The position numbers and the translations under genes are program-made. A DNA stretch of 64,000 nt from Alphaproteobacteria bacterium (GTDB lineage Bacteria; Pseudomonadota; Alphaproteobacteria; CAAGCB01; CAG-977). The DNA is taken from contig JAFVAT010000028.1 of NCBI GenBank assembly GCA_017480385.1, positions 69,936 to 133,935 on the forward strand, read 5' to 3'. The notes below the pieces were generated by a model, which saw only the letters and a program-made list of their open reading frames with translations, was not told the DNA's origin and did not search any database. The first letter of the stretch is position 1; each line of letters starts with the position of its first letter. Of this stretch, positions 27,720 to 51,740 are shown piece by piece.

Positions 27720-27813
27720 ATGGTTGTTTCTGTGTTTGAAGCGAACAGGTCTGTTCGGAATCGGAGCGAAGCGGAGATGAAAGGGACCCGCTTGCGGGAA
27801 TTGCCATTCAGGT

Positions 27814-27829
27814 CAGGGGCACCATAAAA
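27814..27829 (+). repeat. 16-bp direct repeat of the tRNA-Leu 3' end (caggggcaccataaaa), att-like scar, followed by a second terminator hairpin
   Basis: Identical to 27678-27693; flanking context also similar (ggtcagggg vs ggccagggg). Confidence 0.55.
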
Positions 27830-34569: not shown

Positions 34570-35040
34570 TTATCTTTCGGAGCAAGTTGGCTGAAAAGCC
34601 GTTGCTGAATTGTATATTTTAAGATAAGAAGCATCCATCTTTTGAATGATTTGATTGACACGTTCTTTAGCTTGTCTGGTATTGGGAGAATCTTCCTCAT
34701 AAACAGGCAAACGGACTTTTTTGCTGAATGCCAAAAAACAAAGCACTTTTTTATTCTCTGTATTTACAAGCAAAAGAGAACCGTTAATTTTTGAGCGGAT
34801 TATCCTTATATTCTTTTCTTGTTTTTTCGTATCGATAAAAGAATCGTAAAAACAGGAAAACCATTCACGGATTTTATGCTCTATAAAAATGACTTCCCGA
34901 TCCTTTTCTAAAATCAAATCACAAGACCCGTTTTTGGAATCCGCGATTTCATCACCGTGCAGAAAGTCAATATCGGAAAATAAGTTTTCAAAACAAGCGT
35001 TATCTTTATGAGCTTGGCAGACTTCACAGAATTTAGCCAT
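34570..35040 (-). CDS. small Cys-containing partner protein of the AAA_21 ATPase
   Basis: 156 aa; N-terminal CEVCQAHKDNAC; acidic cluster DLILEKDREVIFIEHK. 8-bp overlap with the ATPase stop. Confidence 0.5.
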   Translation of the reverse strand: MAKFCEVCQAHKDNACFENLFSDIDFLHGDEIADSKNGSCDLILEKDREVIFIEHKIREWFSCFYDSFIDTKKQEKNIRIIRSKINGSLLLVNTENKKVLCFLAFSKKVRLPVYEEDSPNTRQAKERVNQIIQKMDASYLKIYNSATAFQPTCSER

Positions 35041-36301
35041 TATTCCAAGCTTCCATAAACAAGGAATCCAGCGGAGCGGAAAGATTGGAAAAAATTTCTT
35101 CCGTATTATCCGTTACGTCTTTGATGGTGCTGTAATTTGAGCTGTCATTGATTTTTTCAGCCAAATAAAAATGCGTTTTGTTTTCTAAAACACCATATTT
35201 ATCCGCATACAGCTTCAACGCTTGAAGGAAAAACGGACTGTGTGACGTCAAAAGGATATAATATCCTTCTCTTGCCATAAGGGCTAAAATCTCGGCGTAT
35301 TTCAGTTGCCATTCCGGATGTAAATGGTTTTCAGGTTCGTCCAAAACCAGAATTGAATCCTTTTTCAAGATGCCTGATTTAACCAGAATATCCAATATTC
35401 CGAAAGATTTGGAGCCGGAAGCGATATTGGAAATGTGCAACAAATCAGCCGTAGGGGAAACTTTATACACCCATTCGTGTATTCCGTTCGGATTGATTAC
35501 GAAAGACGCTCCGTTCAAAACTTTTGCGATTTCATCGGAAACAACCGAAAAAGCCTGTTCGGAAATTTTTTCCTTAGCCGCTTCTAATTTTAATTTAATA
35601 TCGTGCCCGAAATAAAGTTTCGATTCAAAAGCGACATCCAAATACAACGGTGTATCTATAAATGTCGCATCGGCAAAGCCGAAAGCCTTGTTTTTCTCTT
35701 CAAACAGAACTTTTCCGACCGCATTGCTTTTGAAAGAAACATCCGCAATCGTAATATCCTCTTTTTTATAGGACAGGCGCGCTGTTGCATCCAAATGACA
35801 GGAGTTGTTTATTTCAGAAATGAAAGAACGCCCGAAGATTGTCACTATAATATTTTTAATCTTTTCTTCTGCCGTAGCATCGGAATTGATAAAAGCCTTC
35901 AATGTTGCCACACGTTTAAAAAAGGACGTTTCTTGCAAAGAGTTCTTTTTATAGAAATCTTCCAACTGTTCAATAAATTTGTATGCAGCGGGAGGAATGT
36001 GCCCGTTTCCTTGTAAAAGAAAATTCCTGATTTCTTGAGAGAAATTAAACAAATCCGGATCACCGGTGATGCTTTTTTCATTGATGGCATCGAAACAGAG
36101 GGACTGAATAGCGGAAGAAATCGTATTTTGTTTTAACCGTTCATACAATTCAGGATATTCGGAAATGGATTTTACGATGGCAAACAGAGCTTTGCCGATA
36201 GTGGATTTCCCGGTGTCGTTCCGTCCGGCGACAACGGTCAGACCGTTTAATTCTATATCGGCATTTTTGATTTTTCCGAAGTTTTCAATATGAAGGGTCA
36301 T
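35033..36301 (-). CDS. AAA_21/ABC-type ATPase (OLD/Rlo/Abi-like defence ATPase)
   Basis: Walker A GRNDTGKST; Walker B/D-loop LVLDEPENHLHP; signature-like TSHSP. Confidence 0.75.
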   Translation of the reverse strand: MTLHIENFGKIKNADIELNGLTVVAGRNDTGKSTIGKALFAIVKSISEYPELYERLKQNTISSAIQSLCFDAINEKSITGDPDLFNFSQEIRNFLLQGNGHIPPAAYKFIEQLEDFYKKNSLQETSFFKRVATLKAFINSDATAEEKIKNIIVTIFGRSFISEINNSCHLDATARLSYKKEDITIADVSFKSNAVGKVLFEEKNKAFGFADATFIDTPLYLDVAFESKLYFGHDIKLKLEAAKEKISEQAFSVVSDEIAKVLNGASFVINPNGIHEWVYKVSPTADLLHISNIASGSKSFGILDILVKSGILKKDSILVLDEPENHLHPEWQLKYAEILALMAREGYYILLTSHSPFFLQALKLYADKYGVLENKTHFYLAEKINDSSNYSTIKDVTDNTEEIFSNLSAPLDSLFMEAWNNG

Positions 36302-36517: not shown

Positions 36518-39500
36518 TCACGCCGCCTGATATTTCTTGAAGTTTTCGGCTTGTTCGATAACGTTTTGATACACTTCATCCTGCGGTTCGGGCGGATAGC
36601 CGTTTTCGTCCAACAAAACGATCAAGTCGGCTTGCAGAGCGGCTTTGATACTCGCTTTTTGCGACCAGTTAGCATATCGGGCTTTATCACTGACAAGGCG
36701 TTTGATTTCCTTTGCCAGAAAAATCATTTTGTCTTCAGGATAAGTGAAGCCGTATTTAACGGCGCAGGCTTTCAAAATGTCGTAAAACGCCTTTTCCTCA
36801 AAGTCGATGCCCAAAGCGACAAAAGACGTCTGCTCCGTTTGCATTTCATAAATCAAGTCGATCATTTCATCGACGATTTCGTTCAGGTCGATTTTATCCG
36901 TCCTGTCGTTATAGCGTTCCAGAATGCCGTTCAGCTTCTCGGCGAAATCGACGGCTTTGATTTTATTGACTTCGCGGAATTTGAAAATAGCGTTTTTCAG
37001 CAGCCGTTCCAGAATTTGAACGCGCGTGTTCGGACGCTTCAACGCCTGCACCCGTTCCAGATATTCGTCGCTGAACAAATCGACGGAGCAATTTTTCTCG
37101 CTTAACTTAAAGATGTCCTCGACATCGCTTGAAACAAGGGCATCCTCCACCATTTGACGCACGCGGGCGTTCATTTCGGAAATGTCGGGCGCATCACCTT
37201 TCGTCATTTTAAAGACGATGGAACGCACAGCGACGTAAAAATGAATCTGGTCACGCTCGGCAGTCGAAATTTCTTCGCTCATCAAACAGAGATTGAACGC
37301 GCTTTTCAGCCGTTTGACGTGCCACATAAACCGCTTTGTCAGTTCTTCCGTCTGTAAAACAAATTCCGCGGCATCGTTCAGGCAATCCAACCGTTCCCGA
37401 TTCTTTCCGTTAAAGTAGCGCGAAGAGTCAAAGGAATGGAACTTCTTGTTTAAAATATCCAACTCGTCTTTAACCAGAGAAACGGACGTTCCGTTATCGG
37501 TCGGCGCGCCGCCTTCCCCGCCCGTGCCGTAAGTGCCGACAGCTTCAGTCAAAGCGCGTTGAATGCCGATATAATCGACGACCAGCCCTTTTTCTTTTCC
37601 CTCATAGACGCGGTTGACGCGGGAAATCGTCTGTATCAGCGTATGCTTATGCACATACTTGTCGATATACATCGTGTCCAAAGACGGCACGTCAAAGCCC
37701 GTCAACCACATATCGACGACAATGGCGATTTTAAAGTTGGACTTGTCGTTTTTGAACTGCCGCGCCAATTCTTCCTTATCGTCTTTTTTCAGCATATTGA
37801 ACAAAGCGGGTTCGTCGTCTTTGTTATACGTCATCACCAGCTTGATTTTTTCCATCGGCTTCAAGTCGCGCTTATCCGCTTCGGTCAGGACGGCGTTTTC
37901 GGCGGCTTCTTTGGCGACCGCCCAATCGGGACGCAAAGCGATGACGTCTTTGTAAAAGTCATAAGCGATTTCCCGATCGGAACAAACGAACATCGCTTTT
38001 CCGGCAACGGTAGCCCCTTCGGAAACACGGGCTTCATAATGGGCGACAAAGTCCTCGGCGATTGCTTTCAAGCGGTCGGGGTGTCCCAGAACAGACTTGA
38101 TCGTCGCGGCTTTTTTCTTGCTTTCCTCGATTTGATATTCGTTCGCGCCCGCTTCTTCGCATTCTTCGTAGTATTTTTCGACCAGAGCCAGCTTTTCGTT
38201 ATCGACGGCGACTTTTGCCGCGCGCCCCTCATAGACGATGCGGACGGTGATGCCGTCGTTGACCGCCTGCGTCATCGTGTAGGCTTCGACAATATCCCCG
38301 AACACGTCCAAAGTCGCGTCGATCGGCGTTCCCGTAAAGCCGACATACGTCGCGTTCGGCAAGGATTGACGCAGAAAATAAGCAAAGCCGTATTTGTCCT
38401 CCACGCCTTTTTCCGAAACTTTGACGCTCTTTTGAATGTTCGTCTGGGAACGGTGCGCTTCGTCCGAAATCACGATAATGTTTTTTCTGTCGCTCAACAG
38501 CCCCGTGTCTTCGGTGAATTTCTGAACGGTCGTCAGGAATAGCCCGCCGCTGACGCGTCCGCTTAAGTTTTGCCCCAACAGAGCGCGGCTTTCGATTTGC
38601 AGAATGCAGTCGTCGCCGATGAATTTTTTGGCGTTCACGAATTGCCCCGACAACTGCCCGTCCAATTCGATACGGTCGGAAATGATTAAAATCGTCGGAT
38701 TGTTCAATTCGGACGAACGCATCAGCTTGCGGGCGAGGTAAAGCATCGTGAAACTTTTGCCGCACCCCGTCGCGCCGAAATAAGTGCCGCCTTTGTTGTC
38801 GCCGGTTTCAACGTGCTTCAAAATGTTTTTGTAAAGGCTGTTCGTCGCGTAAAATTGCGGATAGCGGCAAACGATTTTCAATTCCTTGTCCGATTTGTCG
38901 GGAAAGTAGATAAAATCGCGCAAAACGTCCAAAAGCGCGTCCCGATTGAACAGCCCGTCCAACATCGTGTAAAGGGCTTTGACGCCGTCCGCCTCCTCTG
39001 CCGTTCCTTTACTGCGCCAAGCGTAAAAATTGTTCAGATCGGCAAAGACGGAACCGACTTTCGTATTAACGCCGTCCGAAATGACAATAAAAGCGTTGTA
39101 TTTGTAAATCTCCGGAATATCGCGGCGGTAACGCACGGTCAGCTGCCTGAACGCGTCCTCGATCGTGATTTCCTCTTTAACGGGCGTTTTCAGTTCCATC
39201 ACGACGACGGGCAAACCGTTGATGAAAACGACGACGTCGGGAATGCGCGTTTCGCTTGCGCCTTTAACGGTAAATTGATTAACGACTTTAAACAGGTTTG
39301 CGTCCGGCGCATCATAGTCGATCAGGCGGATCAGAACGTCTTTATCCTGCGGATTGTCGCGGTGAAAAATAACGCCGGTTGAAATGATTCGGAAAATTTC
39401 GCGGTTGGAATCATACAAAGCCCCCGCTCCGGCGGAGTAATTATCCAGCGTTTTTATGAACCGCGCGCGCTCCGCTTCGGTCAATTCGGGATAACGGGAT

Positions 39501-39643
39501 TCCAGATAAGCGACCAAGTCTTCGCGCAAAAGCACGTCGGACAAGTCGCGCTCAATATCATCGCCGTGAACGTAAGTGAAGCCGTTTTCCTCCAGCCGTT
39601 CAACGACGACCTGTTCCAACGAAGCTTCATTAAACCGGCGCAT
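36518..39643 (-). CDS. hsdR: Type I restriction enzyme R subunit
   Basis: Walker A ATGCGKSFT; DEAH box VISDEAHRSQ; HsdR-type N-terminus. 1041 aa. Confidence 0.92.
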   Translation of the reverse strand: MRRFNEASLEQVVVERLEENGFTYVHGDDIERDLSDVLLREDLVAYLESRYPELTEAERARFIKTLDNYSAGAGALYDSNREIFRIISTGVIFHRDNPQDKDVLIRLIDYDAPDANLFKVVNQFTVKGASETRIPDVVVFINGLPVVVMELKTPVKEEITIEDAFRQLTVRYRRDIPEIYKYNAFIVISDGVNTKVGSVFADLNNFYAWRSKGTAEEADGVKALYTMLDGLFNRDALLDVLRDFIYFPDKSDKELKIVCRYPQFYATNSLYKNILKHVETGDNKGGTYFGATGCGKSFTMLYLARKLMRSSELNNPTILIISDRIELDGQLSGQFVNAKKFIGDDCILQIESRALLGQNLSGRVSGGLFLTTVQKFTEDTGLLSDRKNIIVISDEAHRSQTNIQKSVKVSEKGVEDKYGFAYFLRQSLPNATYVGFTGTPIDATLDVFGDIVEAYTMTQAVNDGITVRIVYEGRAAKVAVDNEKLALVEKYYEECEEAGANEYQIEESKKKAATIKSVLGHPDRLKAIAEDFVAHYEARVSEGATVAGKAMFVCSDREIAYDFYKDVIALRPDWAVAKEAAENAVLTEADKRDLKPMEKIKLVMTYNKDDEPALFNMLKKDDKEELARQFKNDKSNFKIAIVVDMWLTGFDVPSLDTMYIDKYVHKHTLIQTISRVNRVYEGKEKGLVVDYIGIQRALTEAVGTYGTGGEGGAPTDNGTSVSLVKDELDILNKKFHSFDSSRYFNGKNRERLDCLNDAAEFVLQTEELTKRFMWHVKRLKSAFNLCLMSEEISTAERDQIHFYVAVRSIVFKMTKGDAPDISEMNARVRQMVEDALVSSDVEDIFKLSEKNCSVDLFSDEYLERVQALKRPNTRVQILERLLKNAIFKFREVNKIKAVDFAEKLNGILERYNDRTDKIDLNEIVDEMIDLIYEMQTEQTSFVALGIDFEEKAFYDILKACAVKYGFTYPEDKMIFLAKEIKRLVSDKARYANWSQKASIKAALQADLIVLLDENGYPPEPQDEVYQNVIEQAENFKKYQAA

Positions 39644-39655
39644 TTTATAAAATCC

Positions 39656-40297
39656 TTAAACTCTGGCTATATTATGAACATCTACATAAGGAAGCAATTT
39701 TTCAAAAAAAGTTTCATCAGAGAAAACTTCTTTAAGTTTATTCAAAGCTATCAAATAAGGATGATTTTCAGAAAAACCGGATAATATAAGTAATTCCCGT
39801 TCTGTTGACGACTCCCCATTTAACATTTTAAAGGATTTTTCTGCTAAATTAGCCATACTCCGTTGCGCAGAAATATCTCCACTTTGAGCTTTTTCATTAA
39901 GCATTCGCATATCCGCGAAATAGCGCTTCACTCCGAAATTAAAGTTACGTAAAAATCCGGAAAAAACTAAAAGTTTTTGAGAAATTTCTTCCGAAAAAAG
40001 GTGCTTTGCATTCATTGAAGCAATTAAAAAACGAGAATTTAAAGCATCTAAATATCTGATAGAATCTTCTTGAGAAAAGCATCCTAAATAACCATTTAGA
40101 AAACCGATGTTTGTATCGCTATTTTTAACCATTGATCTTACTTCGTTTATAACAGACAAACATTCCATTCTTTTTTCAAGCAACGCTATTTTCACAGCCT
40201 GTTCTTGCATTTTGGTTTGGCGTTTTAAAATGAAAGCCTGCACGCAACCTATTAATACGAGTAAAAACGTTGAAACTTCTTCCAAATGTATTGACAT
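39656..40297 (-). CDS. hypothetical protein with N-terminal TM helix, embedded between hsdS and hsdR
   Basis: ORF 39656..40441 overlaps the upstream gene by 76 bp. The internal ATG (MSIHLEE, SD AGAGGA) at 40297 is the more plausible start. Confidence 0.4.
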   Translation of the reverse strand: MSIHLEEVSTFLLVLIGCVQAFILKRQTKMQEQAVKIALLEKRMECLSVINEVRSMVKNSDTNIGFLNGYLGCFSQEDSIRYLDALNSRFLIASMNAKHLFSEEISQKLLVFSGFLRNFNFGVKRYFADMRMLNEKAQSGDISAQRSMANLAEKSFKMLNGESSTERELLILSGFSENHPYLIALNKLKEVFSDETFFEKLLPYVDVHNIARV

Positions 40298-40365
40298 CTT
40301 AAAATCCTCTGTCCTTTTGATAAAAGGATCATAAGATTTTTTTGGAAAAAATACAATGCTCTGCC

Positions 40366-41208
40366 TTACCCTTTCTTTAATCCCTTTAAAAACTCTGCCA
40401 TATTGTTTTTGCGGGTAGTGTTGTCTTTGATCAGAATGCAAAACAACAATAATTGATACAATTCGTCATACCACTTTTCCAATTCTTCAGCGGAAAGAGT
40501 CTCAATCAAAGGATTTTTATTTTTTCCCGAACGGTTGTTATGGCGAATATCCAAATTGTTTAAAAGAGCGCGGGCTTTATCAAAATAGTCTGAAAAGCAG
40601 TCAACACCCTTTCTCAATAATGGTTCATATTCTAAAGCGATTTGACTAAGCAGTTTCCGCTTTTCCGTCAAATTTCCTTTTAAAGAGCCGTGATGATACA
40701 TCAAAATAGCAAAAGCGGTATCTTCGGACGACAATTCGGCAACAGCTGTCGCCGCCGGATTTTTAGGAATCAAAATAACTTTTTCTTCATCTTCGAAATA
40801 ATGTTCTTCATAGTGCAGATGATCTAACAAAAGTGTTATATTTTGAAGAAGCATAATATATTTATCGTCATATCGAAATTCCGTTCCAAATCCGATTTTT
40901 TTCTGCATTAATCTGATAATGTTTAGGAAATATTCTAACATTTTTATTTTTTCTGTTAATGTCGTTATGTTTTTATTCGGAATTAGCTTCTCCCGCATTT
41001 CTGAACAAGATAAACAGCTATGCCGTTGTTTCCAAAAAGCAAATAAAAATTTATCTACGATAGCCTCTATATTGAATTCTCCTTGCTTCAACGTAAGAGT
41101 ATCCGTATATAGAAATAACGGTTGAAAAAATAAAGTTGCTATTTTTCCCATTTCCTCGTCAATATCATATTTTTCCTGTAAAAGTTCGAAAATATTTTTT
41201 CTGGACAT
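40366..41208 (-). CDS. hypothetical protein (280 aa), embedded between hsdS and hsdR
   Basis: Starts 2 bp after the hsdS stop; lower GC than the hsd genes. Confidence 0.5.
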   Translation of the reverse strand: MSRKNIFELLQEKYDIDEEMGKIATLFFQPLFLYTDTLTLKQGEFNIEAIVDKFLFAFWKQRHSCLSCSEMREKLIPNKNITTLTEKIKMLEYFLNIIRLMQKKIGFGTEFRYDDKYIMLLQNITLLLDHLHYEEHYFEDEEKVILIPKNPAATAVAELSSEDTAFAILMYHHGSLKGNLTEKRKLLSQIALEYEPLLRKGVDCFSDYFDKARALLNNLDIRHNNRSGKNKNPLIETLSAEELEKWYDELYQLLLFCILIKDNTTRKNNMAEFLKGLKKG

Positions 41209-41210
41209 AG

Positions 41211-42554
41211 TTAAACCTCATCATTGACAGAGGGCAAGGACACGTTTTCGACATCTAATTTGCCGCCAAGGAGTTGGGGCAAGAGCGTGTCGCGAGTTTG
41301 TTCCAGCGTGCGGATTTGTTTGCTGTTTTCTATGATTTTTTCAAAAAAAGCTGAAACTAGATTTTGGAAACGAATCAATATGTTTACATCTGGTATAATG
41401 ACTTTCAATTCAGATACTTTCGTTTTATTCAAATTTTGTTGAGCAGCCCCATTAGCCGCTAATGCGTAAGTGTTTTGGTTCGCTTTTGCAAGCAGATAAA
41501 CATAATAAATAGTATGCTTGTATGGAATAAGCGCACAACAGGCTTGATTGGCTGAAACATCTATCCCTAGTAAAGTAGATTCTCCTGCTGTTGCTCCGTA
41601 CATAGCAACAACGGTTGTGTATTTTTTCCATATTTTTGCTGATGAGTTCCGCAGACCTTCTTCGGAAATTTTTTCTTTTGTATGGATTATTATAGGAAAA
41701 TTTACTTCCCCCGAAGATAACCATGGTATTGTTGGAGGATACCAATACTCTTTAATATTGCGTTTCGGCGTTCCTCCACTTTGAATATCAGAACATAAAT
41801 CTTCGATTTTCCCAAGTTTCCAGCCTTGCGGGAGGTAGTCAGGGGTGAAGGCGGAGGGAAACAGGGCGCAAAGGTCGGGGGTGATGTGGTATTTTTTGCA
41901 AATGTCTTCGGTCGGCGTGCCGGCGGCTTTGGCGCGGACGATATCGAAATCGACGAACCAAGACTGAAACACGGCTTGCGCCATTTGTTCCAACGTCTTG
42001 TTCTGTTCGCGCAACACTTCGATCTTGTCGTCCAACGCCCCCAATATCCCCGCAATCTTCCGCTGAATTTCAAGAGGTGGGAAGAGAAAAAATTCCTCTC
42101 CCAACGGAGTAGCTTCTATACGTTGTCTTCCAGATGTTCCATTCATAAGAGAAATGGCTCTTTCTCTGAAATCGGGAGAAATTGCCAAATAATACAAGAA
42201 CAAAGCATCTGAAACGCCATCTTTTTTCCGAAGGACTATAAATTCTGTTGAACCGAAGGCTATTTCTCCCTCTTCTAATATATCGACAAAAGCTGTTTTT
42301 CCATTTTCTAAGCACGGAGTTATACGCGCTAATAAAGTATCTCCTTTTTGAAATTTTGCTCCGGAAGAATAGCTTTCTTCTGTAAATCCCCCTATCTTCC
42401 GACAAAACGGAGTAAGCTTTTCCATCCCTATTTTTTTTACAATGCTACCTTTTGAGATAGATGTTTTCGGGTTTAAACAACAAAAATCTTTAATTTGAAT
42501 ATTCCGCCATTCAATCATTTTCAGATCCTGCGAATAAATCTTTTTCGAATTCAT
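41211..42554 (-). CDS. hsdS: Type I RM specificity subunit
   Basis: Two target-recognition domains separated by the conserved central helix (...ILGALDDKIEVLREQNKTLE...) and a C-terminal conserved helix (LPQLLGGKL). Confidence 0.85.
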   Translation of the reverse strand: MNSKKIYSQDLKMIEWRNIQIKDFCCLNPKTSISKGSIVKKIGMEKLTPFCRKIGGFTEESYSSGAKFQKGDTLLARITPCLENGKTAFVDILEEGEIAFGSTEFIVLRKKDGVSDALFLYYLAISPDFRERAISLMNGTSGRQRIEATPLGEEFFLFPPLEIQRKIAGILGALDDKIEVLREQNKTLEQMAQAVFQSWFVDFDIVRAKAAGTPTEDICKKYHITPDLCALFPSAFTPDYLPQGWKLGKIEDLCSDIQSGGTPKRNIKEYWYPPTIPWLSSGEVNFPIIIHTKEKISEEGLRNSSAKIWKKYTTVVAMYGATAGESTLLGIDVSANQACCALIPYKHTIYYVYLLAKANQNTYALAANGAAQQNLNKTKVSELKVIIPDVNILIRFQNLVSAFFEKIIENSKQIRTLEQTRDTLLPQLLGGKLDVENVSLPSVNDEV

Positions 42555-43047
42555 TTAATACTTTTTGATTATAAGAGTTTTTATATACGTTCATATAATT
42601 ATCAGCAAAATCAAGTGTATAATTTAACTGAAAAACTATGATTAACAATGCAAAGTGTATTGATGATACATGTAAAATATCATAATAATCATATTTAAAA
42701 TTAAATACACTTAAAAAAAACAGAAAAATCAACGAAAACAAGCATAATTTTAAAAATTTTTTATTATCTTGTATAAAGCCCTCGAACATATTATGTTTTT
42801 TCATATAAAAATTAATCTCTTTATTAGAATATGTTGCCAATAAAAAAGATTGCGAAAAAGCAAAAACAATAGAAATACATGTAATTGCATCAGAAATCAA
42901 ATCTTCCTTTAATGAAAAAAATGGGCTCAACATCAAAAAAAGGAAAAGTATAAACACCCTATACTTTTTTAAAAATTTCTTCGACCTCATAATATCCTTC
43001 CTCTTTTTCAAACTCAAAAATTTCTTTTGCAATGACACTTTCTTCAT
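42511..43047 (-). CDS. small multi-pass membrane protein (start uncertain, possibly 42990)
   Basis: Three or four hydrophobic helices; very AT-rich; overlaps both neighbours. Confidence 0.4.
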   Translation of the reverse strand: MKKVSLQKKFLSLKKRKDIMRSKKFLKKYRVFILFLFLMLSPFFSLKEDLISDAITCISIVFAFSQSFLLATYSNKEINFYMKKHNMFEGFIQDNKKFLKLCLFSLIFLFFLSVFNFKYDYYDILHVSSIHFALLIIVFQLNYTLDFADNYMNVYKNSYNQKVLNEFEKDLFAGSEND

Positions 43048-43714
43048 TAATAGAAATAAAACCGTCAGAAGTTTCTCCTTTAATGTTAAATGTTTTTATA
43101 TATGTCGGCCGCCTTAACTTCTTATATAAATTTATTATATAGTCTTCATTAAGAGGTCTTTTAAATTCCATTTTTATAGTCGTTGTTTCTGGAGGCTCTT
43201 TCTCATCTAAATCATCTCCCCAATGCGGATTTAAAAATTCATTGATGAATAAATCATTTGTAGCAGTAATAGAAACAGATTCTATTGATTTTACCTGCTT
43301 AATGAAATCATCAATGGATGTTGAAACTGCTAACAAATTACACGAAAAATTTTTATCAGAATCATGCAAAAGATTTAATATTACATTTCTTTTATTATTA
43401 TCCGAACACAAAACTCTATCTTGATAAATTACAAATATAAATTGATTTGTCATATGAATAACTTCATCTGATAAAACACTATCATCATATATTTTCAAAT
43501 TTCGATCATAGCATCTATTCGGCCATGATTTACCATAAGATACTAAAAAAACTATCTTTGTTTCATCCATCATATAACGTATTGTATATGTAACATTTTT
43601 TAGAGGGAAATCTATAATATTTTTATCTTTTAAATAATTTTCTAAAATTCGTTTTGCCGCTCCTAATAGGTCTACGCATTCAGGGATATAGTTAAACATA
43701 CGTACAGTGCTCAT
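42959..43714 (-). CDS. hypothetical protein (251 aa), hsd-embedded cargo
   Basis: Clean AT-rich ORF co-directional with the hsd array. Confidence 0.45.
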   Translation of the reverse strand: MSTVRMFNYIPECVDLLGAAKRILENYLKDKNIIDFPLKNVTYTIRYMMDETKIVFLVSYGKSWPNRCYDRNLKIYDDSVLSDEVIHMTNQFIFVIYQDRVLCSDNNKRNVILNLLHDSDKNFSCNLLAVSTSIDDFIKQVKSIESVSITATNDLFINEFLNPHWGDDLDEKEPPETTTIKMEFKRPLNEDYIINLYKKLRRPTYIKTFNIKGETSDGFISINEESVIAKEIFEFEKEEGYYEVEEIFKKV

Positions 43715-43725
43715 TTTTCATTATC

Positions 43726-43959
43726 CTAAAATTTTTCTCTTCCGTTAATTATCGTATCCAATTTATCCAAAGTATCAACCAAATTATAGGCTTCATCGTT
43801 TGATTTAAGCCAATTCAGAGAGTCCGCAATCAACAGCTTTTTGGCTTCGTCGCCGATGTCCGTCCTTGCCAATATCCGCCGGATTTTCGATTTATGAAAT
43901 TCTTTTATCAATCCGTGTAAAAGAAAAAACTTTAAATTCATTCTGTCGCCCTTTTGCAA
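43726..43959 (-). CDS. hypothetical small protein (77 aa)
   Basis: ORF 11 bp upstream of the 251-aa gene; weak support. Confidence 0.3.
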   Translation of the reverse strand: MQKGDRMNLKFFLLHGLIKEFHKSKIRRILARTDIGDEAKKLLIADSLNWLKSNDEAYNLVDTLDKLDTIINGREKF

Positions 43960-44057
43960 TTTAGAAATCCGGTTAATTATCCTATCCGATTTATTAAAAG
44001 TCGCAACCGGATTTACAGATTTTGCCCCCTTCCCTTTCGTCCGCTCCTCTCCTTTTT

Positions 44058-45362
44058 TTATTCTGAAACGCTGACAATCTGCGGCACGGCATATAACGGC
44101 AAGTCGGTTAGTTTGTTTTCCTGCTTAAATGTGGCGGCGGACAGACGGACGGCACGGTTCGGATTGAACTTTTCCATATACCATTTCAGGCTTTTCGCCC
44201 GCAGGTTTGTCGAGGCTTTGACTTCGACGGGAACGATCTCCGAACCGGTTTGAATGATGAAATCGATTTCGTTCGTGCCGCTCTCGTTCGCCCAATACGC
44301 CAAAGGCATCTCCGGCAGATTTTTCAACTCCTGCAAAACGTATTGTTCCGTCAAAGCCCCTTTGAACTCTTCAAAAATATCCGACGGCGACAACAGTGCT
44401 TTTGCATCAAGCGACGACATCGCCGATAAAAGTCCGACATCGGAAACATAGATTTTGAACGCCGTCAAATCCTGATACGCGACGAGGGGAAGATCTGGTT
44501 TCTTCACCCGATAGACTTTATAAATCAGTCCGCAGGCTTCCAACCACGTCAGCGCGTTTTCAAATTCTTTCGCCCGCGCCCCTTTCTGAATTTTGCTGTA
44601 AATGAACTTCTTGTTTTCCTTTGCCAGTTGTCCCGGAATAGACGACCAGAGCATTTTCAATTTGGGAAGTCCGTCCTTCGGAATATGCTTTGAAAAGTCG
44701 TTTTCATAGGAACGCAAAATCGCTTGTTGCAAAGAGCGCACTTCCTGATAATCCCTGTGTTCGGCAAACGCTTTGACGACTTCGGGCATACCGCCGACAT
44801 AAAAATACCGTTTGACCCAATCGATAAAAGTATCGTGTAAAGGCGTCAGAACAGCGAAATTGTTTTTTCTGATCTGCTCCAGAGCCATATCCTGCCCCAT
44901 AGCGGACAGAAATTCGTAAAAGCTCAGCGGATAGAGGTTCAAAAATTCGACTTTCCCGACCGGAAAGGACATTCCGCCGTGTAAAGCGACGCCCAACAGA
45001 CTGCCCGCCGCTATGATGTGATATTCGGGCTTTTGTTCGTAAAAGTATTTCAACGATGTCAGAGCGTTCGGACTTTCCTGAATTTCATCGAAAATAATCA
45101 GCGTGTCGTTCGGCGTGATTTTAAATCCGGCAAGGATTCCCAGACTTTCCAAAAGTCGATCCGTGTTGACGTCTTTTTCAAACAGGGCTTTCAGCTGTTC
45201 GTTTTGTTCAAAAATGAAGTAAGCGACTTTGGAAAACCGCAATCGCCCGAATTCTTGCATCAGCCACGTCTTGCCGACCTGACGCGCCCCTTGAACGATC
45301 AGAGGCTTCCGGTTTTGCTTGTCTTTCCATTCATTCAGTTGCTTTAACGCAATCCGTTCCAT
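44058..45362 (-). CDS. AAA+ ATPase of the DUF4143/AAA_14 family (second copy, distinct sequence)
   Basis: Walker A GARQVGKTWL; Walker B IIFDEIQ. Confidence 0.75.
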   Translation of the reverse strand: MERIALKQLNEWKDKQNRKPLIVQGARQVGKTWLMQEFGRLRFSKVAYFIFEQNEQLKALFEKDVNTDRLLESLGILAGFKITPNDTLIIFDEIQESPNALTSLKYFYEQKPEYHIIAAGSLLGVALHGGMSFPVGKVEFLNLYPLSFYEFLSAMGQDMALEQIRKNNFAVLTPLHDTFIDWVKRYFYVGGMPEVVKAFAEHRDYQEVRSLQQAILRSYENDFSKHIPKDGLPKLKMLWSSIPGQLAKENKKFIYSKIQKGARAKEFENALTWLEACGLIYKVYRVKKPDLPLVAYQDLTAFKIYVSDVGLLSAMSSLDAKALLSPSDIFEEFKGALTEQYVLQELKNLPEMPLAYWANESGTNEIDFIIQTGSEIVPVEVKASTNLRAKSLKWYMEKFNPNRAVRLSAATFKQENKLTDLPLYAVPQIVSVSE

Positions 45363-45503
45363 TCCGTTTTTGCTCCTGTTTTACATTTTTTCAAACGAAC
45401 TTGTGTGGATATATTACACTTTTTCAAAGGAAGTTGAAACATAAAACAACGTTTTTTCAAAGGAACTTTCGCGCTCACGCTACACTTTTTCAAAGGAACA
45501 TTA

Positions 45504-46478
45504 TCATTTTCCCGATTTTTTGCCGTTCAATATGCTGATAACGATTTGTTTCATCGTTTCCATTTCCTCCGGTTTGCTTTCAGCGATCAAAACGGTCAGC
45601 GCGAACAACGTCGCGTTATCAATCACAGGCGCACCGTTGCGATACAAAATGCCGTTCCTGTCCAGAAAATAAAGGAAGCAAGCCGCGCCGATACGTTTGT
45701 TTCCGTCCGAAAAGCCGTGATTCTTAACCACAAAATAAAGCAACATAGCGGCTTTTTCCTCTAACGCCGGATAACAATCCCGCCCGCCGAATGTCTGGTA
45801 TATCTGGTTCACGGAACTGTCGAAACTGTCGTCTTTCGGATTGGCGAAAACAGCGGAAGCGAACGCCGGTTTCATTTTGTCAATGACGGATAAAAATTCC
45901 TCTTTTGTAACGACGACCGCCGGTTTTACGGTTTTTCCTTTGGTATCAAGCGTTTTATTGTCATAGTCGTCAAGCAAATCCAATCCTGCGGCAAAATCCG
46001 CCATTAACGCGCTGAATTTTTTCGCCTCGTCCAAGTTGTCCGCCTGATGCTCAATACTGCGGTTTAACAGCCTGATCGCGTTTTGTAACTGCGCGACTTT
46101 GGATTTTTGTTCTTGTAACCGCTTTTCATTCAAAGCGTAACCGTCAACGAGGTATTTTTTCAAAACCGTACTGACCCATCGCCGAAAAGCGGAAGCCTTT
46201 GCCGAATTGGCTCTGTATCCGACCGCCAGAACAACGTCCAGACTGAAAAACTCTACGGGTCTGTCAGAATTTGGAATGTGCATTTTTTGCACATTGCTTT
46301 TTTTATCAAGTTCTTCCTGATTGAAAATATTGTTGATATGTCGGGATACGCCCGAACGGTCTATTTCAAACAGTTCGGCTATTTCATTTTTATTCAGCCA
46401 AACCGTTTCGTTTTTCCGGTCGATTTGCACATCAATGCAAGCGTATGACTCGTAAATGATTTCCAAACTGTTGCTCAT
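45504..46478 (-). CDS. RhuM-family N-terminal domain fused to Fic/Doc domain
   Basis: RhuM blocks (ETVWLNKNEIAELFEIDRSGVSRHINNIF; DVVLAVGYRANSAKASAFRRW) and Doc-type Fic motif HGFSDGNKRIG. TAAATG junction with hsdM. Confidence 0.75.
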   Translation of the reverse strand: MSNSLEIIYESYACIDVQIDRKNETVWLNKNEIAELFEIDRSGVSRHINNIFNQEELDKKSNVQKMHIPNSDRPVEFFSLDVVLAVGYRANSAKASAFRRWVSTVLKKYLVDGYALNEKRLQEQKSKVAQLQNAIRLLNRSIEHQADNLDEAKKFSALMADFAAGLDLLDDYDNKTLDTKGKTVKPAVVVTKEEFLSVIDKMKPAFASAVFANPKDDSFDSSVNQIYQTFGGRDCYPALEEKAAMLLYFVVKNHGFSDGNKRIGAACFLYFLDRNGILYRNGAPVIDNATLFALTVLIAESKPEEMETMKQIVISILNGKKSGK

Positions 46479-47990
46479 TTATACCCACCCGATTTGCGCC
46501 AGATTTGCTTTGATTTGTGCGTCGAGTTCCGCGCCTTTCGCCATTTGCGCGTTCAAGTCCGCCACCAACGCCGCCATTTTCGTTTCAAATTCTTCCCGGC
46601 TTGTCTCGGTTTCCTCTATGCCGACATAGCGTCCGGGGGTCAGGGTGTAGTCGTTCGCCGCGATCTCCGCCAAGTCCGCCGATTTGCAAAAGCCTTTGAC
46701 GTCTTTGTATTCGGGGGAGCCTTTGCGCCAGTCGTGATAGGTCTTCGTGATTTTCGCGATGTCTTCGTCCGAAAAGTCGCGGTGCGTCCTGTCCGCCATA
46801 AAGCCGACGTTGCGCGCGTCGATGAACAGCGTTTCCTTGCGTTCCCTGTTCTTGCGGATAAACCACAGGCAAGCCGGGATCTGCACGGTGAAAAACAACT
46901 GCGCGGGCAAAGCGATCATACATTCGACAAAGCCTTTTTCTATCAGCGCGCGGCGGATTTTGTCCTCTCCGCCCGTCGAAGAACTCATCGACCCGTTCGC
47001 CATAACAAAGCCCGCAACGCCCTTGTCGCTCAACTTGGACAGCATGTGCAAAATCCAGCCGTAGTTCGCGTTGCCCGCAGGCGGTACTTCAAAACCGTTC
47101 CAGCGCGGATCGTCCGTCAGTTCGCTTTCGGCGCGCCATTCTTTCAGATTGAACGGCGGATTGGCTAAAATAAAGTCGGCTTTCAGGTCTTTGTGCTGGT
47201 CTTTGGAAAAAGTGTCCGCCGGCATCGCCCCCAAGTCCGCCGAAATCCCCCTTATGGCAAGGTTCATCTTTGCCAGCTTCAATGTCGCGGAGTTCTGCTC
47301 CTGTCCGAAAATGGCGATGTCGTTCGTTTCTCCGCCGTGCGCCGCGATGAACTTCGCCGACTGAACGAACATTCCGCCCGAACCGCAGCACGGGTCATAA
47401 ACGCGCCCTTTATACGGCTCGATCATTTCGGTCAGCAGGCGGACAATGCACTTCGGCGTGTAGTATTCGCCGCCCTTTTGTCCCTGCGACGCCGCGAACT
47501 TGCCCAAGAAATACTCATACACCCGCCCGAACAGGTCGAAGTCGTGAGAATCTATTTTGATTTGATTGATGATGTCCACCAGAGCCGACAGCTTCGATAC
47601 GTCCATCGTCAGCCGCGAATAAAAATTGTCGGGCAACGCGCCTTTCAAAGCCTCGTTGTTCTTTTCGATTTCCGCCAAAGCCGTATCGATCAACAGCGGC
47701 AGATCGGGCTTTTTCGCGTTCCCGATCAGATACGACCAACGAGACGCGGGTGTCAGGTAAAAGACGTTTTCGCTCATATAAAAAACGGGATTGTCAATAT
47801 ACTTTTCGCGCCCAATCGCGATCAGTTCGGCACGGCGGGCATCAAACCGATCCCCCGCGTATTTCAAAAAGATCAATCCTAAGCAGACGTTCATATAGTC
47901 ATATGAAACAACCGTCCCCCGCAATTTGTTCGCGGAATCCCACAGCAGTTCCTCCAACGACTTTTCGGCTTTTTTGATTTGTTTGGGCAT
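46479..47990 (-). CDS. hsdM: Type I RM DNA methyltransferase subunit
   Basis: NPPF motif (ILANPPFNLKEW) and AdoMet motif DPCCGSGGMF. Start probably at MPKQIKK. Confidence 0.9.
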   Translation of the reverse strand: MPKQIKKAEKSLEELLWDSANKLRGTVVSYDYMNVCLGLIFLKYAGDRFDARRAELIAIGREKYIDNPVFYMSENVFYLTPASRWSYLIGNAKKPDLPLLIDTALAEIEKNNEALKGALPDNFYSRLTMDVSKLSALVDIINQIKIDSHDFDLFGRVYEYFLGKFAASQGQKGGEYYTPKCIVRLLTEMIEPYKGRVYDPCCGSGGMFVQSAKFIAAHGGETNDIAIFGQEQNSATLKLAKMNLAIRGISADLGAMPADTFSKDQHKDLKADFILANPPFNLKEWRAESELTDDPRWNGFEVPPAGNANYGWILHMLSKLSDKGVAGFVMANGSMSSSTGGEDKIRRALIEKGFVECMIALPAQLFFTVQIPACLWFIRKNRERKETLFIDARNVGFMADRTHRDFSDEDIAKITKTYHDWRKGSPEYKDVKGFCKSADLAEIAANDYTLTPGRYVGIEETETSREEFETKMAALVADLNAQMAKGAELDAQIKANLAQIGWV

Positions 47991-48204
47991 TGTCGATCCT
48001 CTCTCGCTTTTATCAAAAAAAAGATTAGACAAGCCCGCTTTAAAACGCAACCGGAGAATAAACGTTTTGCTTAAACGAGGACGTTTTTTGCCTTTTTGTC
48101 GGACGAAACAAAAGAAAAAGCCCCCCGGAATTGAAACCTAAAAAGCCTCTTTTTGTTGAGCGATTTGTTCCACCCGCGCATAAACTTGTGTCGCAGCGAG
48201 TGTT

Positions 48205-48757
48205 TTATGGTTCAGGAATCTTAAAACAACGGATAAATTCGCCGTTCATACATTCATAACTCGCGACCGTCCGGCGCAAATCGTGCATATGCAAATTTGA
48301 AAGTTGAGCGCGTTTTTTGATTCTGTCCCAGACTTTTCTCGGCTCTTTCAAGTGCTCCTCCGGATTTAACAGACGCGGAAACACCCACAGATTTCCGCCG
48401 GACTGCAATTTCAATTCTTCCAGCTTGATCGTCAGCTGTTCCACCAACGGCACGCACAACGAAGTCCCGTTTTTGGTTCGGGCGACATACCAAATACCCG
48501 TCTTGAAATCGACATCTTCCCATCGCATGGAAAGGACATTTCCTCGTCTTTGTCCCGTAAAAAGCAACACACAACCGAAAGCTGATCAACCAACGGAACA
48601 TGCATTGACGTGCCGTTTTTCGTTCGCGGAATATGCCAGATGTTCGTCGAGAAATGAATATCCTCCCAACGCATTGACAGGACATTTCCGCACCTCTGCC
48701 CCGTATAAAGAAGCGTAAAAACAAGACGAGATACCTTAACTCTATCCGATTATCCAA
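48205..48757 (-). pseudogene. tyrosine recombinase/integrase remnant (frame-disrupted, truncated before catalytic Tyr, contains internal tandem duplication)
   Basis: Box I-like GQRRGNVLSMRWEDVDF and HxxR-like LHMHDLRRT read in one frame. A second frame carries a diverged duplicate MRWEDIHFSTNIWHIPRTKNGTS. No intact ORF of integrase length. Confidence 0.6.
48442..48715 (-). repeat. diverged ~130-bp tandem duplication inside the integrase remnant
   Basis: 48442-48570 vs 48587-48715, about 75% identity (accaacgg.ac...gtcccgtttttggttcg.g... / ggacatttcc). Confidence 0.5.
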
Positions 48758-48994
48758 AACAAATAAGAAGCGTTGTAATTCTTCGGGCGAAAGAAAACGC
48801 TCCCGGGCTTCCAGTTTATATTTCGGAATGCCGTGTACCGGGGAAGTGACCTTTTGAGATTTTTACCGTCATTTATCTGACTTAATACCGTTTGCCTTTG
48901 CGGCTGAGAATTTGACAATTCTCCGTCGTTATCAGCTCATTTACATTCTTGGCCTCTGTCACAGACAAATTAATTCATTATGCTACTGCAACCA

Positions 48995-49702
48995 TCAAAA
49001 GCCTTTGAAATACTTTGAAATATCCATAGCAGGAACTGTACCTAATAATCGCAGCCTATCAACAAAAGCCATAAAAAAAGAAAGTAAAGAATCTTTTTCA
49101 TCTAATGATAAAATATAATTATTTTCATGCCATAGCCAACTCTTTCCTTTCACACAACACCCTATGTCGAGAAAATCTAAAGCATCATATGAACATTTCT
49201 TTTGTATCAGTCTATCCTCCCACGCTTTATTTGTCGTAAGCAACCCAGCAATAATATGAGGAGGTTCACGACCGGGCATTAATGTTCCATTACAATAAAC
49301 TGGAGCTGTTGTTCTTCTTAGTTGACGTACTGATTGCGCTTTTTGTTGTGCGTATTCAAAATTTTCCTGAGAGAGGCTTTGTTTAACTTCAAAAACGGCA
49401 TAAACACTTTCAATTGGTATATACTTAACCCCATCTTGATTAAAAATGAATGGTGAAAAATATTCATCATATATTACTATATCTATCTGATCACTTATGC
49501 TGCCATTATAATCAACGACAAAAGCTTTATTACACGAATATCTTTTGGGAAGATATTCATTAAAAAAAACTCGCCACGCTTCTTCCGTAAGATCACCTTT
49601 CGCAGGAGAATGCGTACATTGTTGCTTCATTTTTAGATACATTTGTTGTTGTAATGCACTAAACAATCCCGATACATCTATTACCATATTACCTGTTTCC
49701 AA
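48995..49702 (-). CDS. predicted PD-(D/E)xK-fold nuclease-like protein, partner of the nucleotidyltransferase
   Basis: Candidate motif: D in QIDIVIYDE followed by AVFEVKQ (D...E-x-K). 22-bp overlap with the NTase gene stop. About 28% GC. Confidence 0.45.
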   Translation of the reverse strand: METGNMVIDVSGLFSALQQQMYLKMKQQCTHSPAKGDLTEEAWRVFFNEYLPKRYSCNKAFVVDYNGSISDQIDIVIYDEYFSPFIFNQDGVKYIPIESVYAVFEVKQSLSQENFEYAQQKAQSVRQLRRTTAPVYCNGTLMPGREPPHIIAGLLTTNKAWEDRLIQKKCSYDALDFLDIGCCVKGKSWLWHENNYILSLDEKDSLLSFFMAFVDRLRLLGTVPAMDISKYFKGF

Positions 49703-50496
49703 TTGCTCGTATTAAAAAACTTTTGAGCTTGTTCAACGACCTTTTGTTTTTCATACTGTGTCATATCATTAGAAATAATGTTTGCAGAATTAAATGGATC
49801 TATCAAATTGTCCCTAAAAAAATCATTAATATAATAATTCATAATATCATGAAAGCCCTTTTCAAGACTTATATTATGACTGCAGCCATATAATGCCTTT
49901 AAAACTGATAATTCAATATTCATTGACGGAAAATCGAGTTGATGACAATCTCTCCATATTTTAATTAATTTTATGAAATTTTGTCGACCAGAATCTTGAA
50001 TATGCTTAATGTGTCCTTTTACGTTCGTTTGTGTCCAAGTACTCTGTTTTGATTTGTAAAGACTATGAAAATTAGAATTAATTTCATGTTGTCTAGCAGG
50101 TACAATATCTATATCTATTTGTCTGTATCCATTAGTCAACCCTTTAATCCCTATAGATACATTCTGCTGACGTACAGAAAAACCTTGTTGTCTCCCCAAA
50201 TTGGCTAATCTATCAAATAATGAACCATAAATATCTTTAAGCGGATCCATACAAGAACTTTTAATTGAAACAAAGAGATCAACATCAGATTTTCCTTTGA
50301 CAGCAACTCCTTTTGCGGAAGAACCTGCTATAAAAAACTCATTCAAATAGCCATTGCTCCATTGAGATATTGTGGGATAAAAAAATTTTTTTACTTCATT
50401 TCCCAATAATAAACCATCATCATTATTTTTATTATTTAATACACTTTGTAAATACATATACTTAAACTCCTCATTTTCCATTAAAAAAAACATCAA
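49681..50496 (-). CDS. minimal Pol-beta-superfamily nucleotidyltransferase (CD-NTase/SMODS-like)
   Basis: GS-x9-DhD motif IAGSSAKGVAVKGKSDVDLFVS and a downstream third-acidic strand QIDIDIVP. 271 aa. Confidence 0.55.
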   Translation of the reverse strand: MMFFLMENEEFKYMYLQSVLNNKNNDDGLLLGNEVKKFFYPTISQWSNGYLNEFFIAGSSAKGVAVKGKSDVDLFVSIKSSCMDPLKDIYGSLFDRLANLGRQQGFSVRQQNVSIGIKGLTNGYRQIDIDIVPARQHEINSNFHSLYKSKQSTWTQTNVKGHIKHIQDSGRQNFIKLIKIWRDCHQLDFPSMNIELSVLKALYGCSHNISLEKGFHDIMNYYINDFFRDNLIDPFNSANIISNDMTQYEKQKVVEQAQKFFNTSNWKQVIW

Positions 50497-50954
50497 TATA
50501 TCATATAAAATAATCTAAAAATTTCAAATTATTTTTTAAATAATTACGCAAAAAAAATACTCAAATTATTTCAAATAATAACAAGCTCCATCTAATAATT
50601 AAAAACAAATTTAAAATCATTATTATTTATCCTGAGGCTGGCAAATAACTCTTCATATTTTTAAGATACAAAAATATACTAAAAAAATGAGCCCCATGCA
50701 AAGAAATTGACACCAATTCGTTTTTTATGATTATTTTTACATTTCAATCGCTTATGCTAAGCGTGATAAACTGCTTCGGAAATTAGAAAATATAGCACCA
50801 AAGCGTACTCAAACGACAAATAGGACAGTCCATAATCCTGAATGAGCTTTTCCGTAAAATTCTGTTGTGCGATATTTATTTTCAGACTTTTTGATTGACA
50901 AAACGTTTTTTATATAATTCCCCAGAAAAATCTGCATAGTGAAAGGTATAAGCG

Positions 50955-51740
50955 ATGATTTACAAAAGCGATTTTCCCATTTTAAACTTTGACGACAATA
51001 AAACCGCCAAAATATCCGTACAAATGTTTGAAGGCAAAAAATCCGTCGGTATAAAATACGGCGTCATCTGCTTTGATATGAACGCTCGCGAAAGGTTGGC
51101 GCGAAAATATCCGTCCAGAGTTATCGGAACAGTCGAAGGATGCGGCATAATGCCTTTGAACATATACGTTATCGACTTTAAAGGCACTGAAATCGTTCTG
51201 CACCAAGGGATTGCAGGCGGCCCTTGGGCTGCTTCGATAATGGAAGAGTTAGTCGCATTCGGGTGCAAAAGGGTCATTGCGGTTGGAGGCGCCGGCGTTT
51301 TAGAACCGGATATCGCGCGCGGACATTTAATTATTCCGACCAGCGCGGTTCGCCAAGAAGGCGCTTCTTATCATTATGTCGCTCCAAGTAAATATATTGA
51401 GCATTCACCGGAAGTTGTCGATAAAATGTGCGCCTATTTGAAAGAAAAAAAACTGCCTTTTGTTTGCGGGCGCACATGGACGACGGACGCCCTATTCCGT
51501 GAAACGCAGGATTTGATTGATTTACGGAAAAAAGAAGGCTGTGTCTGCGTCGAAATGGAAAACGCCGCATTCGGCGCGGTCGCCCAATTTTATAATATTA
51601 AATTTGGTCAAATTCTTTATGGCGGAGATTCCTTATGTGGCGATGTTTGGGACAAAAGAGATTGGGCAAATGAAGACATCAAAGAAAAAGCCCAGTCGGA
51701 ATTGTTGAATTTAGCCATGGAAATGGTGACCAGAATTTAA
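50955..51740 (+). CDS. PNP/UDP-family nucleoside phosphorylase/nucleosidase
   Basis: Family blocks GIAGGPWAASIMEEL, RVIAVGGAG, CVEMENAAFGAVA. SD AAAGG. Confidence 0.7.
   Translation: MIYKSDFPILNFDDNKTAKISVQMFEGKKSVGIKYGVICFDMNARERLARKYPSRVIGTVEGCGIMPLNIYVIDFKGTEIVLHQGIAGGPWAASIMEELVAFGCKRVIAVGGAGVLEPDIARGHLIIPTSAVRQEGASYHYVAPSKYIEHSPEVVDKMCAYLKEKKLPFVCGRTWTTDALFRETQDLIDLRKKEGCVCVEMENAAFGAVAQFYNIKFGQILYGGDSLCGDVWDKRDWANEDIKEKAQSELLNLAMEMVTRI

Follow-up and report, generated by a model that had tools for sequence, protein, structure and literature searches.

The DNA analyzed here, called the window, is a stretch of 64,000 nucleotides of contig JAFVAT010000028.1 from an uncultured alphaproteobacterium. 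Two adjacent genes on its minus strand very probably form a type I operon of the cyclic-oligonucleotide-based antiphage signaling system (CBASS). The first, cdn, encodes a compact cGAS/DncV-like nucleotidyltransferase (CD-NTase), and the second, nucC, encodes the effector nuclease NucC. A type I CBASS by definition comprises just a CD-NTase and an effector. The two genes were assigned to it because they consist of a cyclase and a NucC effector only and no accessory gene is conserved around 80 related loci. Type I CBASS with NucC is an already described architecture and not a new defense system. A previous reading of the letters alone (the sequence-only reading) had proposed a CBASS-like or novel system; the CBASS part of that proposal stood, and the novelty did not. 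All positions given below are those of the window.

The sequence-only reading had reported two overlapping minus-strand open reading frames (ORFs), and both were found, with the motifs it had quoted. At their maximal extents they start from TTG codons and cover 49681–50496 (271 aa) and 48995–49702 (235 aa), with an overlap of 22 nt. Public gene calls and the family alignment placed both starts at ATG codons further in. The cyclase starts at ATG 50457 (258 aa), with GAGGAG 9 nt upstream, and nucC starts at ATG 49687 (230 aa). The 22-nt overlap holds for the TTG-started ORFs; between the likely ATG-started genes it is 7 nt. An identical 7-nt overlap was present in the gene calls of relatives L005, L007, L088, L089, and L090. 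The overlap, ATGGTAA, suggests that the two genes are translationally coupled in a single operon. Public records with the same boundaries, IJ752_07010 (258-aa cyclase) and IJ752_07005 (230 aa), belong to an Alphaproteobacteria metagenome-assembled genome (MAG). Both proteins were unchanged in several independent assemblies, on contigs from different samples. Because the profile matches were full length (E-values of 1e-72 and 1e-76) and the proteins recur unchanged, the ORFs are far beyond chance. Both genes are real and intact.

The PADLOC Cyclase model PDLC00803 matched gene 1 end to end (E-value 1.1e-72; residues 13–271 against positions 4–253 of 253). Thirteen further CBASS cyclase models in PADLOC matched it more weakly. 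All PADLOC matches of gene 1 were CBASS cyclase models, and no AbiE or other non-CBASS model was among them. The active-site motif is GS-x11-DxD, formed by G45, S46, D58, and D60 (258-aa numbering), and the third acidic residue is D117 within IDIDIVP. The sequence-only reading had recognized GS, DxD, and IDIDIVP and had miscounted the spacing as x9. In an alignment of 112 cyclase homologs, G45, S46, K49, D58, D60, and D117 were invariant. D58 and D60 aligned with D72 and D74 of CdnC, the residues changed in catalytic-dead CdnC.

The structure of gene 1 was modeled with AlphaFold2 (pLDDT 95.8, pTM 0.90). The predicted fold is two-lobed, with a nucleotidyltransferase core and a C-terminal helical lobe of the CD-NTase/OAS type. 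Foldseek returned E. coli MS115-1 CdnC as the best match (E-value 1.6e-13, TMq 0.73) and P. aeruginosa CdnD as the next. CdnE, CdnB, OAS1, and cGAS followed, and these four and CdnD all had a probability of 1.00. The family of this cyclase is uniformly about 250 aa and is present in many phyla. Judged by profile matches and predicted fold, gene 1 is a CD-NTase/SMODS-type signaling nucleotidyltransferase, in agreement with the sequence-only reading.

The PADLOC model Effector Endonuclease (NucC), PDLC00745, matched the whole gene 2 protein with an E-value of 1e-76, and a second NucC model, PDLC01051, matched it with 1.7e-50. Its Pfam name is DUF6602 (E-value 5.6e-31). Against the PDB, gene 2 matched five solved NucC entries (6uxf, 6p7o, 6p7p, 6q1h, and 7zgv; E-values 1.6e-40 to 1.2e-34), which come from Vibrio metoecus, E. 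coli MS115-1 (two constructs), P. aeruginosa ("ORF C62"), and Serratia. The best sequence match was V. metoecus NucC (1.6e-40). The AlphaFold2 model of gene 2, made from 101 sequences, had a mean pLDDT of 92 and superposed on NucC bound to 3',3',3'-cyclic tri-AMP (cAAA) with a TM-score of about 0.9. The top 14 Foldseek matches were all NucC (TM-scores 0.79–0.91, E-values down to 8e-26). They were followed by the type II restriction enzymes NgoMIV and SgrAI, a kinship remarked by the NucC authors (Lau et al., bioRxiv 10.1101/694703).

Gene 2 residues were mapped onto E. coli NucC with an alignment of 100 homologs that included that protein. The NucC active site is IDx30EAK, comprising D73, E104, and K106, and cAAA is contacted by R53, Y81, T226, and the backbone of V227 (Lau et al., bioRxiv 10.1101/694703). 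The active site of gene 2 is I68-D69-x30-E100-V101-K102. Its aspartate and glutamate were invariant, and its lysine was present in 98 of the 100 homologs. The sequence-only reading had seen a PD-(D/E)xK nuclease in the motifs DIVIYD and FEVK, and these motifs indeed correspond to D73, E104, and K106. R49, T217, and V218 are identical to R53, T226, and V227, and they were near-invariant or invariant among the homologs. Y81 is replaced by F77, a conservative change that was found in 30% of the homologs. By sequence and modeled structure, gene 2 is unambiguously NucC.

The sequence-only reading had also described gene 2 as a sensor-less nuclease, and here it was mistaken. In NucC, the nuclease fold itself forms an allosteric pocket at the trimer axis, where cyclic tri-AMP binds (Lau et al., bioRxiv 10.1101/694703). 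No SAVED, STING, or TIR domain is expected, since this pocket itself senses cyclic tri-AMP. The statement that the pair fits none of CBASS types I–IV and may be novel also failed, as a cyclase with one effector is what defines type I. By its database matches the pair belongs to a system that already has a name, and a CD-NTase–NucC type I operon has been tested with phages.

To describe the gene context, one genome per species was scanned. This yielded 162 cyclase relatives, and the best 80 of the 162 were analyzed. NucC was directly downstream on the same strand in 68 of the 80 loci and just upstream in two; ten had none. When all flanking ORFs of the 80 loci were clustered, no other gene family was common to more than a handful. 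What looked like additional clusters were shadow ORFs on the antisense strand of the two genes themselves. A cyclase and DUF6602, without HORMA, TRIP13, Cap2, or Cap3, were listed in the gene calls of Paenibacillus, Providencia, Elongatibacter, Candidatus Enterousia, and several MAGs. Accessory genes of CBASS types II–IV were not found in the Pfam gene-call tables of nine relatives. In the window, every sizeable ORF around the two genes was scanned with Pfam and PADLOC, and no HORMA, TRIP13, Cap2 E1/E2, Cap3 JAB, or type IV QueC/TGT/OGG-like gene was found among these neighbors. The signature of type III CBASS, HORMA (Cap7/8) with TRIP13/Pch2 (Cap6), was absent from both the window and the homologous loci.

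Some cyclase relatives without NucC had other neighbors. SAVED-fusion proteins adjoined the cyclase in two examined NucC-less relatives (L057, 6380–7876; L082, 8629–10173). The exchange of NucC for SAVED is a kind of effector replacement well known from CBASS, and it supports a diffusible nucleotide signal. Across the NucC-less relatives the neighbors included these SAVED fusions, a SIR2-STAND NTPase (L048, 5389–7902), and a Cas10-palm protein (L019, 4840–7248). These neighbors suggest effector swapping and possibly further partnerships of the compact cyclase family. In Providencia (L002, 4830–5957) and Elongatibacter (L004, 4324–5397), an HTH_3–Peptidase_M78 fusion gene preceded the two genes. 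It resembles a fused CapH/CapP regulator, and nothing comparable was found in the window.

Several characterized systems are close to this locus. About 2,400 type I operons have been analyzed and 17 cloned, in a panel that includes XpCdnC03-NucC (Richmond-Buccola et al., bioRxiv 10.1101/2023.05.21.541620; Cell Host Microbe 2024). In E. coli, cloned XpCdnC03-NucC restricts phages (Richmond-Buccola et al., bioRxiv 10.1101/2023.05.21.541620). Like the operon studied here, it has two genes, a CD-NTase gene and then nucC, and no accessory Cap genes. The likeness is one of architecture, and the nearest solved relative of our cyclase is also of clade C (CdnC). The hosts differ, as ours is an uncultured gut or rumen alphaproteobacterium and not a gammaproteobacterium.

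The type III CBASS of E. coli MS115-1 consists of CdnC, Cap7 HORMA, Cap6 TRIP13, and NucC, with CapH/CapP. Its NucC is about 35% identical to gene 2 (TM-score 0.9), with the same active site and the same cAAA contacts except for the change of Y81 to phenylalanine. Its CdnC is the closest solved cyclase structure, and the equivalents of D72 and D74 are kept. In contrast, the window contains no HORMA, TRIP13, CapH, or CapP gene, the cyclase has about 60 fewer residues than CdnC and shares about 20% identity with it, and the NucC latch residues H136 and Y141 are not kept. The CdnD-HORMA-TRIP13-NucC operon of P. aeruginosa ATCC27853 likewise joins a cA3 (cyclic tri-AMP) synthase to NucC, and both proteins were the second-best structural matches. 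Its cyclase belongs to clade D, however, and its HORMA and TRIP13 accessory proteins are absent here. NucC associated with type III CRISPR systems (V. metoecus VmeCmr; Serratia) shares, by homology, the effector mechanism. In those systems Cas10 makes the signal, whereas here nucC is coupled to a CD-NTase.

These comparisons lead to a proposed mechanism. Transcription of the operon would begin in the AT-rich spacer that precedes the cyclase, where a promoter is predicted, and its genes would be translationally coupled through the ATGGTAA overlap seen in the sequence. Phage infection would then activate the CD-NTase without an accessory sensor protein. Phage escape from those type I CBASS operons that have been tested has been mapped to virion-assembly proteins. 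The Pol-beta-type active site of the cyclase (GS, D58xD60, and D117) would make a cyclic trinucleotide, most likely 3',3',3'-cyclic tri-AMP. E. coli CdnC makes cyclic tri-AMP. P. aeruginosa CdnD reportedly makes it as well. We infer this product because CdnC and CdnD are the closest relatives in structure and because the three-fold pocket of NucC is conserved. The E. coli CdnC and P. aeruginosa CdnD operons both use a NucC effector (Lau et al., bioRxiv 10.1101/694703). Binding of the trinucleotide to the NucC trimer would cause two trimers to join as a hexamer, pairing the active sites D69/E100/K102. The hexamer would cut both DNA strands without sequence specificity, so that host DNA is degraded, the infected cell is killed, and the infection aborts. 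NucC activation and DNA cleavage are inferred by homology with the E. coli, P. aeruginosa, and Vibrio enzymes.

Several observations weigh against the assignment to cAAA-signaling type I CBASS. Gene 1 scored 23.3 bits with Pfam SMODS (PF18144), below the gathering score of 26.5, although precomputed PF18144 matches are present on many members of its family. With NCBIfam NF041116 and NF041117 (CBASS_cyclase_a and CBASS_cyclase_b) it scored 61.1 and 30.9 bits, and the equivalog cut-off of 200 bits was not reached. By these scores, gene 1 belongs to a cyclase sub-family other than CBASS_cyclase_a/b. The CD-NTase assignment was decided by the dedicated PADLOC model. Sequence identity between the cyclase and CdnC is only about 20%. 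In E. coli NucC, mutation of the gate-loop latch H136/Y141 abolishes activation (Lau et al., bioRxiv 10.1101/694703); gene 2 has C132 and M137 at these positions and does not have the latch. No convincing terminator was found at the locus. When the upstream 260 nt were aligned with those of four relatives, no conserved operator was found, only AT-rich promoter-like similarity. In addition, the identity of the product, the trigger, and the protection from phages are all predictions, and the source genome is a MAG.

The latch varied within the family. Its first position was H in 40%, Y in 22%, and C in 14% of NucC homologs, and its second was Y in 25% and I in 19%. C132 falls in a V-x-C-N-G loop common to the closest NucC clade. 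Judged from this alignment, the latch residues are not family-defining and mark a sub-clade difference. The change in the gate loop could mean that gating or ligand preference differs from that of E. coli NucC. This opens an alternative in which the operon is the same type I CBASS and its signal is cAAG, a 2'-5'-linked trinucleotide, or another ring. Besides the latch, it draws on the replacement of Y81 by phenylalanine, on the identity of only about 20% between the cyclase and known cA3 synthases, and on the pairing of some NucC-less relatives with SAVED effectors, whose ligands vary. We consider it unlikely. The phosphate contacts R53 and T226 and the adenine-contacting backbone of V227 are essentially invariant in the 100 homologs, and phenylalanine can stack on adenine as tyrosine does. 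The three-fold symmetry of the pocket dictates a trinucleotide, and the nearest structural relatives, CdnC and CdnD, make cAAA. There is a slim chance, too, that a roughly 250-aa accessory-free cyclase and a latch-less NucC sub-clade (Cys/Met, the CNG loop, and Phe for Tyr81) form a distinct signaling pair, with another trinucleotide or another gating, and with self-contained sensing of phages by one of the smaller CD-NTases.

The two genes differ from the rest of the window in base composition. The GC content of the pair is 31.4% (cyclase 29.5%, nucC 33.9%), compared with a mean of 43.8% over the whole window and a median of 45% for 1.5-kb windows. The pair is within the lowest 7% of the 1.5-kb windows. 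The sequence-only reading was right about the AT-richness and gave inexact figures for it (about 28% for the pair and about 50% for the core genes). Its decayed integrase next to the pair was confirmed: a Phage_integrase match with an E-value of 1e-16 covers 48205–48570, and a 121-aa fragment alone still matches. Relatives of the two genes sit in differing defense islands, beside restriction-modification (R-M) systems, AbiE, recombinases, and Fic proteins. Horizontal movement of the cassette from one defense island to another is indicated by its low GC content, by the integrase remnant beside it, and by the variety of places in which its relatives are found. The cyclase family was also found on 23 plasmids, mostly of Rhizobium, Sinorhizobium, and Ensifer; 12 of the 23 are predicted to be conjugative. 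These plasmid copies are annotated only as "nucleotidyltransferase" or "hypothetical protein". No cyclase homolog was found in the phage database searched.

The integrase remnant with its internal duplication, the foreign base composition, and the lack of a clear terminator would also fit a cassette that has lost its function and is decaying as a passenger of a degraded mobile element. This is very improbable given that both ORFs are full length against their profiles and that all family-invariant catalytic and ligand-contact residues are intact. The same protein sequences were found on several contigs from different samples, and the start/stop overlap is preserved.

The pair might be a new non-CBASS system, in which a minimal nucleotidyltransferase acts on a sensor-less PD-(D/E)xK nuclease or serves as its antitoxin, following the logic of AbiE or MNT-HEPN. 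Gene 1 is short, and its match to the generic Pfam family NTP_transf_2 is weak (E-value 9e-4, below threshold). This idea is barely credible and already effectively refuted. All PADLOC matches of gene 1 are CBASS cyclases, its predicted fold is the two-lobed CD-NTase/OAS fold, and gene 2 is unambiguously NucC with a ligand pocket. Neither protein matched AbiEii (PF08843), MNT, AbiEi, or HEPN in Pfam or PADLOC, and the partner is NucC. The replacement of NucC by SAVED in cyclase relatives is sensible only with a diffusible nucleotide signal. Equally far-fetched is a NucC that works in trans for a type III CRISPR-Cas system, as it does in V. metoecus or Serratia, beside an incidental nucleotidyltransferase. 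NucC homologs are known type III CRISPR accessory nucleases, and the distant cyclase relative L019 adjoins a Cas10-palm protein. The ORFs scanned across the window, however, included neither Cas10 nor any other cas gene, nucC is overlapped by and coupled with the cyclase, and the pairing recurs in 70 of 80 genomes.

Assignment to type I CBASS matters little beyond annotation. Public labels of "hypothetical protein", "nucleotidyltransferase", and "DUF6602" can confidently be replaced by type I CBASS cyclase and NucC effector. The uninformative names of the cyclase are due to the sub-threshold scores in general libraries. In the survey, a compact cyclase family was closely tied to NucC in many phyla as well as on plasmids of rhizobia. 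This family could offer a minimal model of infection sensing by a CD-NTase that has no accessory proteins, a subject already pursued with other type I operons. Only two features are mildly unusual, the small size of the cyclases in this family and the variant gate loop of NucC.

Table 1. Positions of genes, motifs, and neighboring features in the window
Feature	Position	Strand	Remarks
cdn, compact CD-NTase (CBASS oligonucleotide cyclase)	49681..50457	minus	258 aa from ATG
nucC, cyclic-trinucleotide-activated restriction-endonuclease-like DNA endonuclease	48995..49687	minus	230 aa from ATG
ATGGTAA start/stop overlap, cyclase/nucC	49681..49687	minus	read directly in sequence
Best sigma-70-like promoter match, TTGAAA-16 nt-TATGAT	50500..50527	minus	prediction, ~45 nt upstream of cyclase ATG
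Cyclase catalytic residues	G45 S46 50320-50325; D58/D60 50278-50286; D117 50107-50109	minus	alignment
nucC active-site codons	D69 49481-49483; E100-K102 49382-49390	minus	alignment to E. coli NucC
nucC ligand contacts	R49 49541-49543; F77 49457-49459; T217/V218 49034-49039	minus	alignment to E. coli NucC
hsdR	36518-39643		first in interrupted type I R-M operon
Two ORFs, no assigned function	39656-41208		between hsdR and hsdS
hsdS	41211-42554		
Two low-GC ORFs, no assigned function	42511-43714		after hsdS
PDC-S01 DUF4143 ATPase	44058-45362		E-value 9e-182
PDC-S23 RhuM-Fic	45504-46478		E-value 8e-114
hsdM	46479-48050		
DUF4143 ATPase	16271-17473		second islet
Two D12-class adenine methyltransferases	17738-19655		second islet
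AlwI-family restriction enzyme	19648-21219		second islet
Abi_2 abortive-infection protein	21611-22504		second islet
Class I lysyl-tRNA synthetase	22618-24201		immediately downstream of second islet
Glutamyl/glutaminyl-tRNA synthetase	7998-9503		further upstream of second islet

The spacer upstream of the cyclase (50497–50954) is 458 nt long with a GC content of 26.6%, close to the AT-rich promoter region of about 450 bp that had been described from the letters. The best promoter match lies within it and agrees with the consensus at 10 of 12 positions. As the AT-rich region yields many consensus matches (21 sigma-70-like matches found, 11.9 expected), the promoter prediction is weak evidence. 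An Rfam scan of 47900–51200 at a permissive threshold gave two chance-level matches, with nothing in the upstream spacer and no riboswitch. A 15-nt inverted repeat, TTTGAAATACTTTGA, with one mismatch brackets the two genes (49004–49018 and 50561–50575), and a 31-nt direct repeat lies in the promoter region, within 50502–50579. These repeats may be due to chance in DNA of 30% GC.

Upstream of the pair are a divergent nucleoside phosphorylase, two GNAT acetyltransferases, and an ankyrin protein. The PNP_UDP_1 gene (50955–51740), divergent from the cyclase, was considered as a Cap17-like nucleosidase effector and rejected. It had no PADLOC match, its GC content was normal, and it was absent beside the cassettes of relatives.

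Downstream are the integrase remnant, hsdM, RhuM-Fic (PDC-S23), the DUF4143 ATPase (PDC-S01), the remaining type I R-M genes, and a type III R-M system. With an OLD/AAA_21-type ATPase, these R-M systems, PDC-S01, and PDC-S23 bear out the defense-island setting proposed earlier. The integrase remnant (48205–48757, minus strand) carries an imperfect 131-nt tandem duplication (48434–48564 and 48580–48710, 73% identity). Because of this duplication, two copies of the segment MRWED..RTKNGTS..VPLV are present, each in its own frame. The type I R-M operon (36518–48050) is interrupted by inserted genes. The AAA_21/OLD-type ATPase (35033–36301) had HEC-02A, NsnB, and PD-T4-4_A as its best PADLOC matches. 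Its partners are an overlapping 156-aa ORF (34570–35040) and a 305-aa ORF (33284–34201) with a weak SLATT-like match. The region 33284–36301 may be a further two- or three-gene defense module.

The 3' end (27670–27693) of a tRNA-Leu(caa) gene (27602–27688) is repeated 136 nt downstream, at 27806–27829, with 92% identity. The repeat resembles an att-type scar, at the point where the defense island starts. No such repeat was found near the cassette, the only copy being the one 136 nt from the tRNA.

A second defense islet (16271–22504) lies between housekeeping genes. Three tandem 33-nt-spaced repeats with the core ACAyTTTTTCAAAGGAA were found at 45383–45498, between the PDC-S01 and PDC-S23 genes. 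A 36-nt repeat, GTTAATCATCGTATCCGATTTATCTAAAGTCGCAAC, was present at three intergenic sites of the island (34233, 43744, and 43972).

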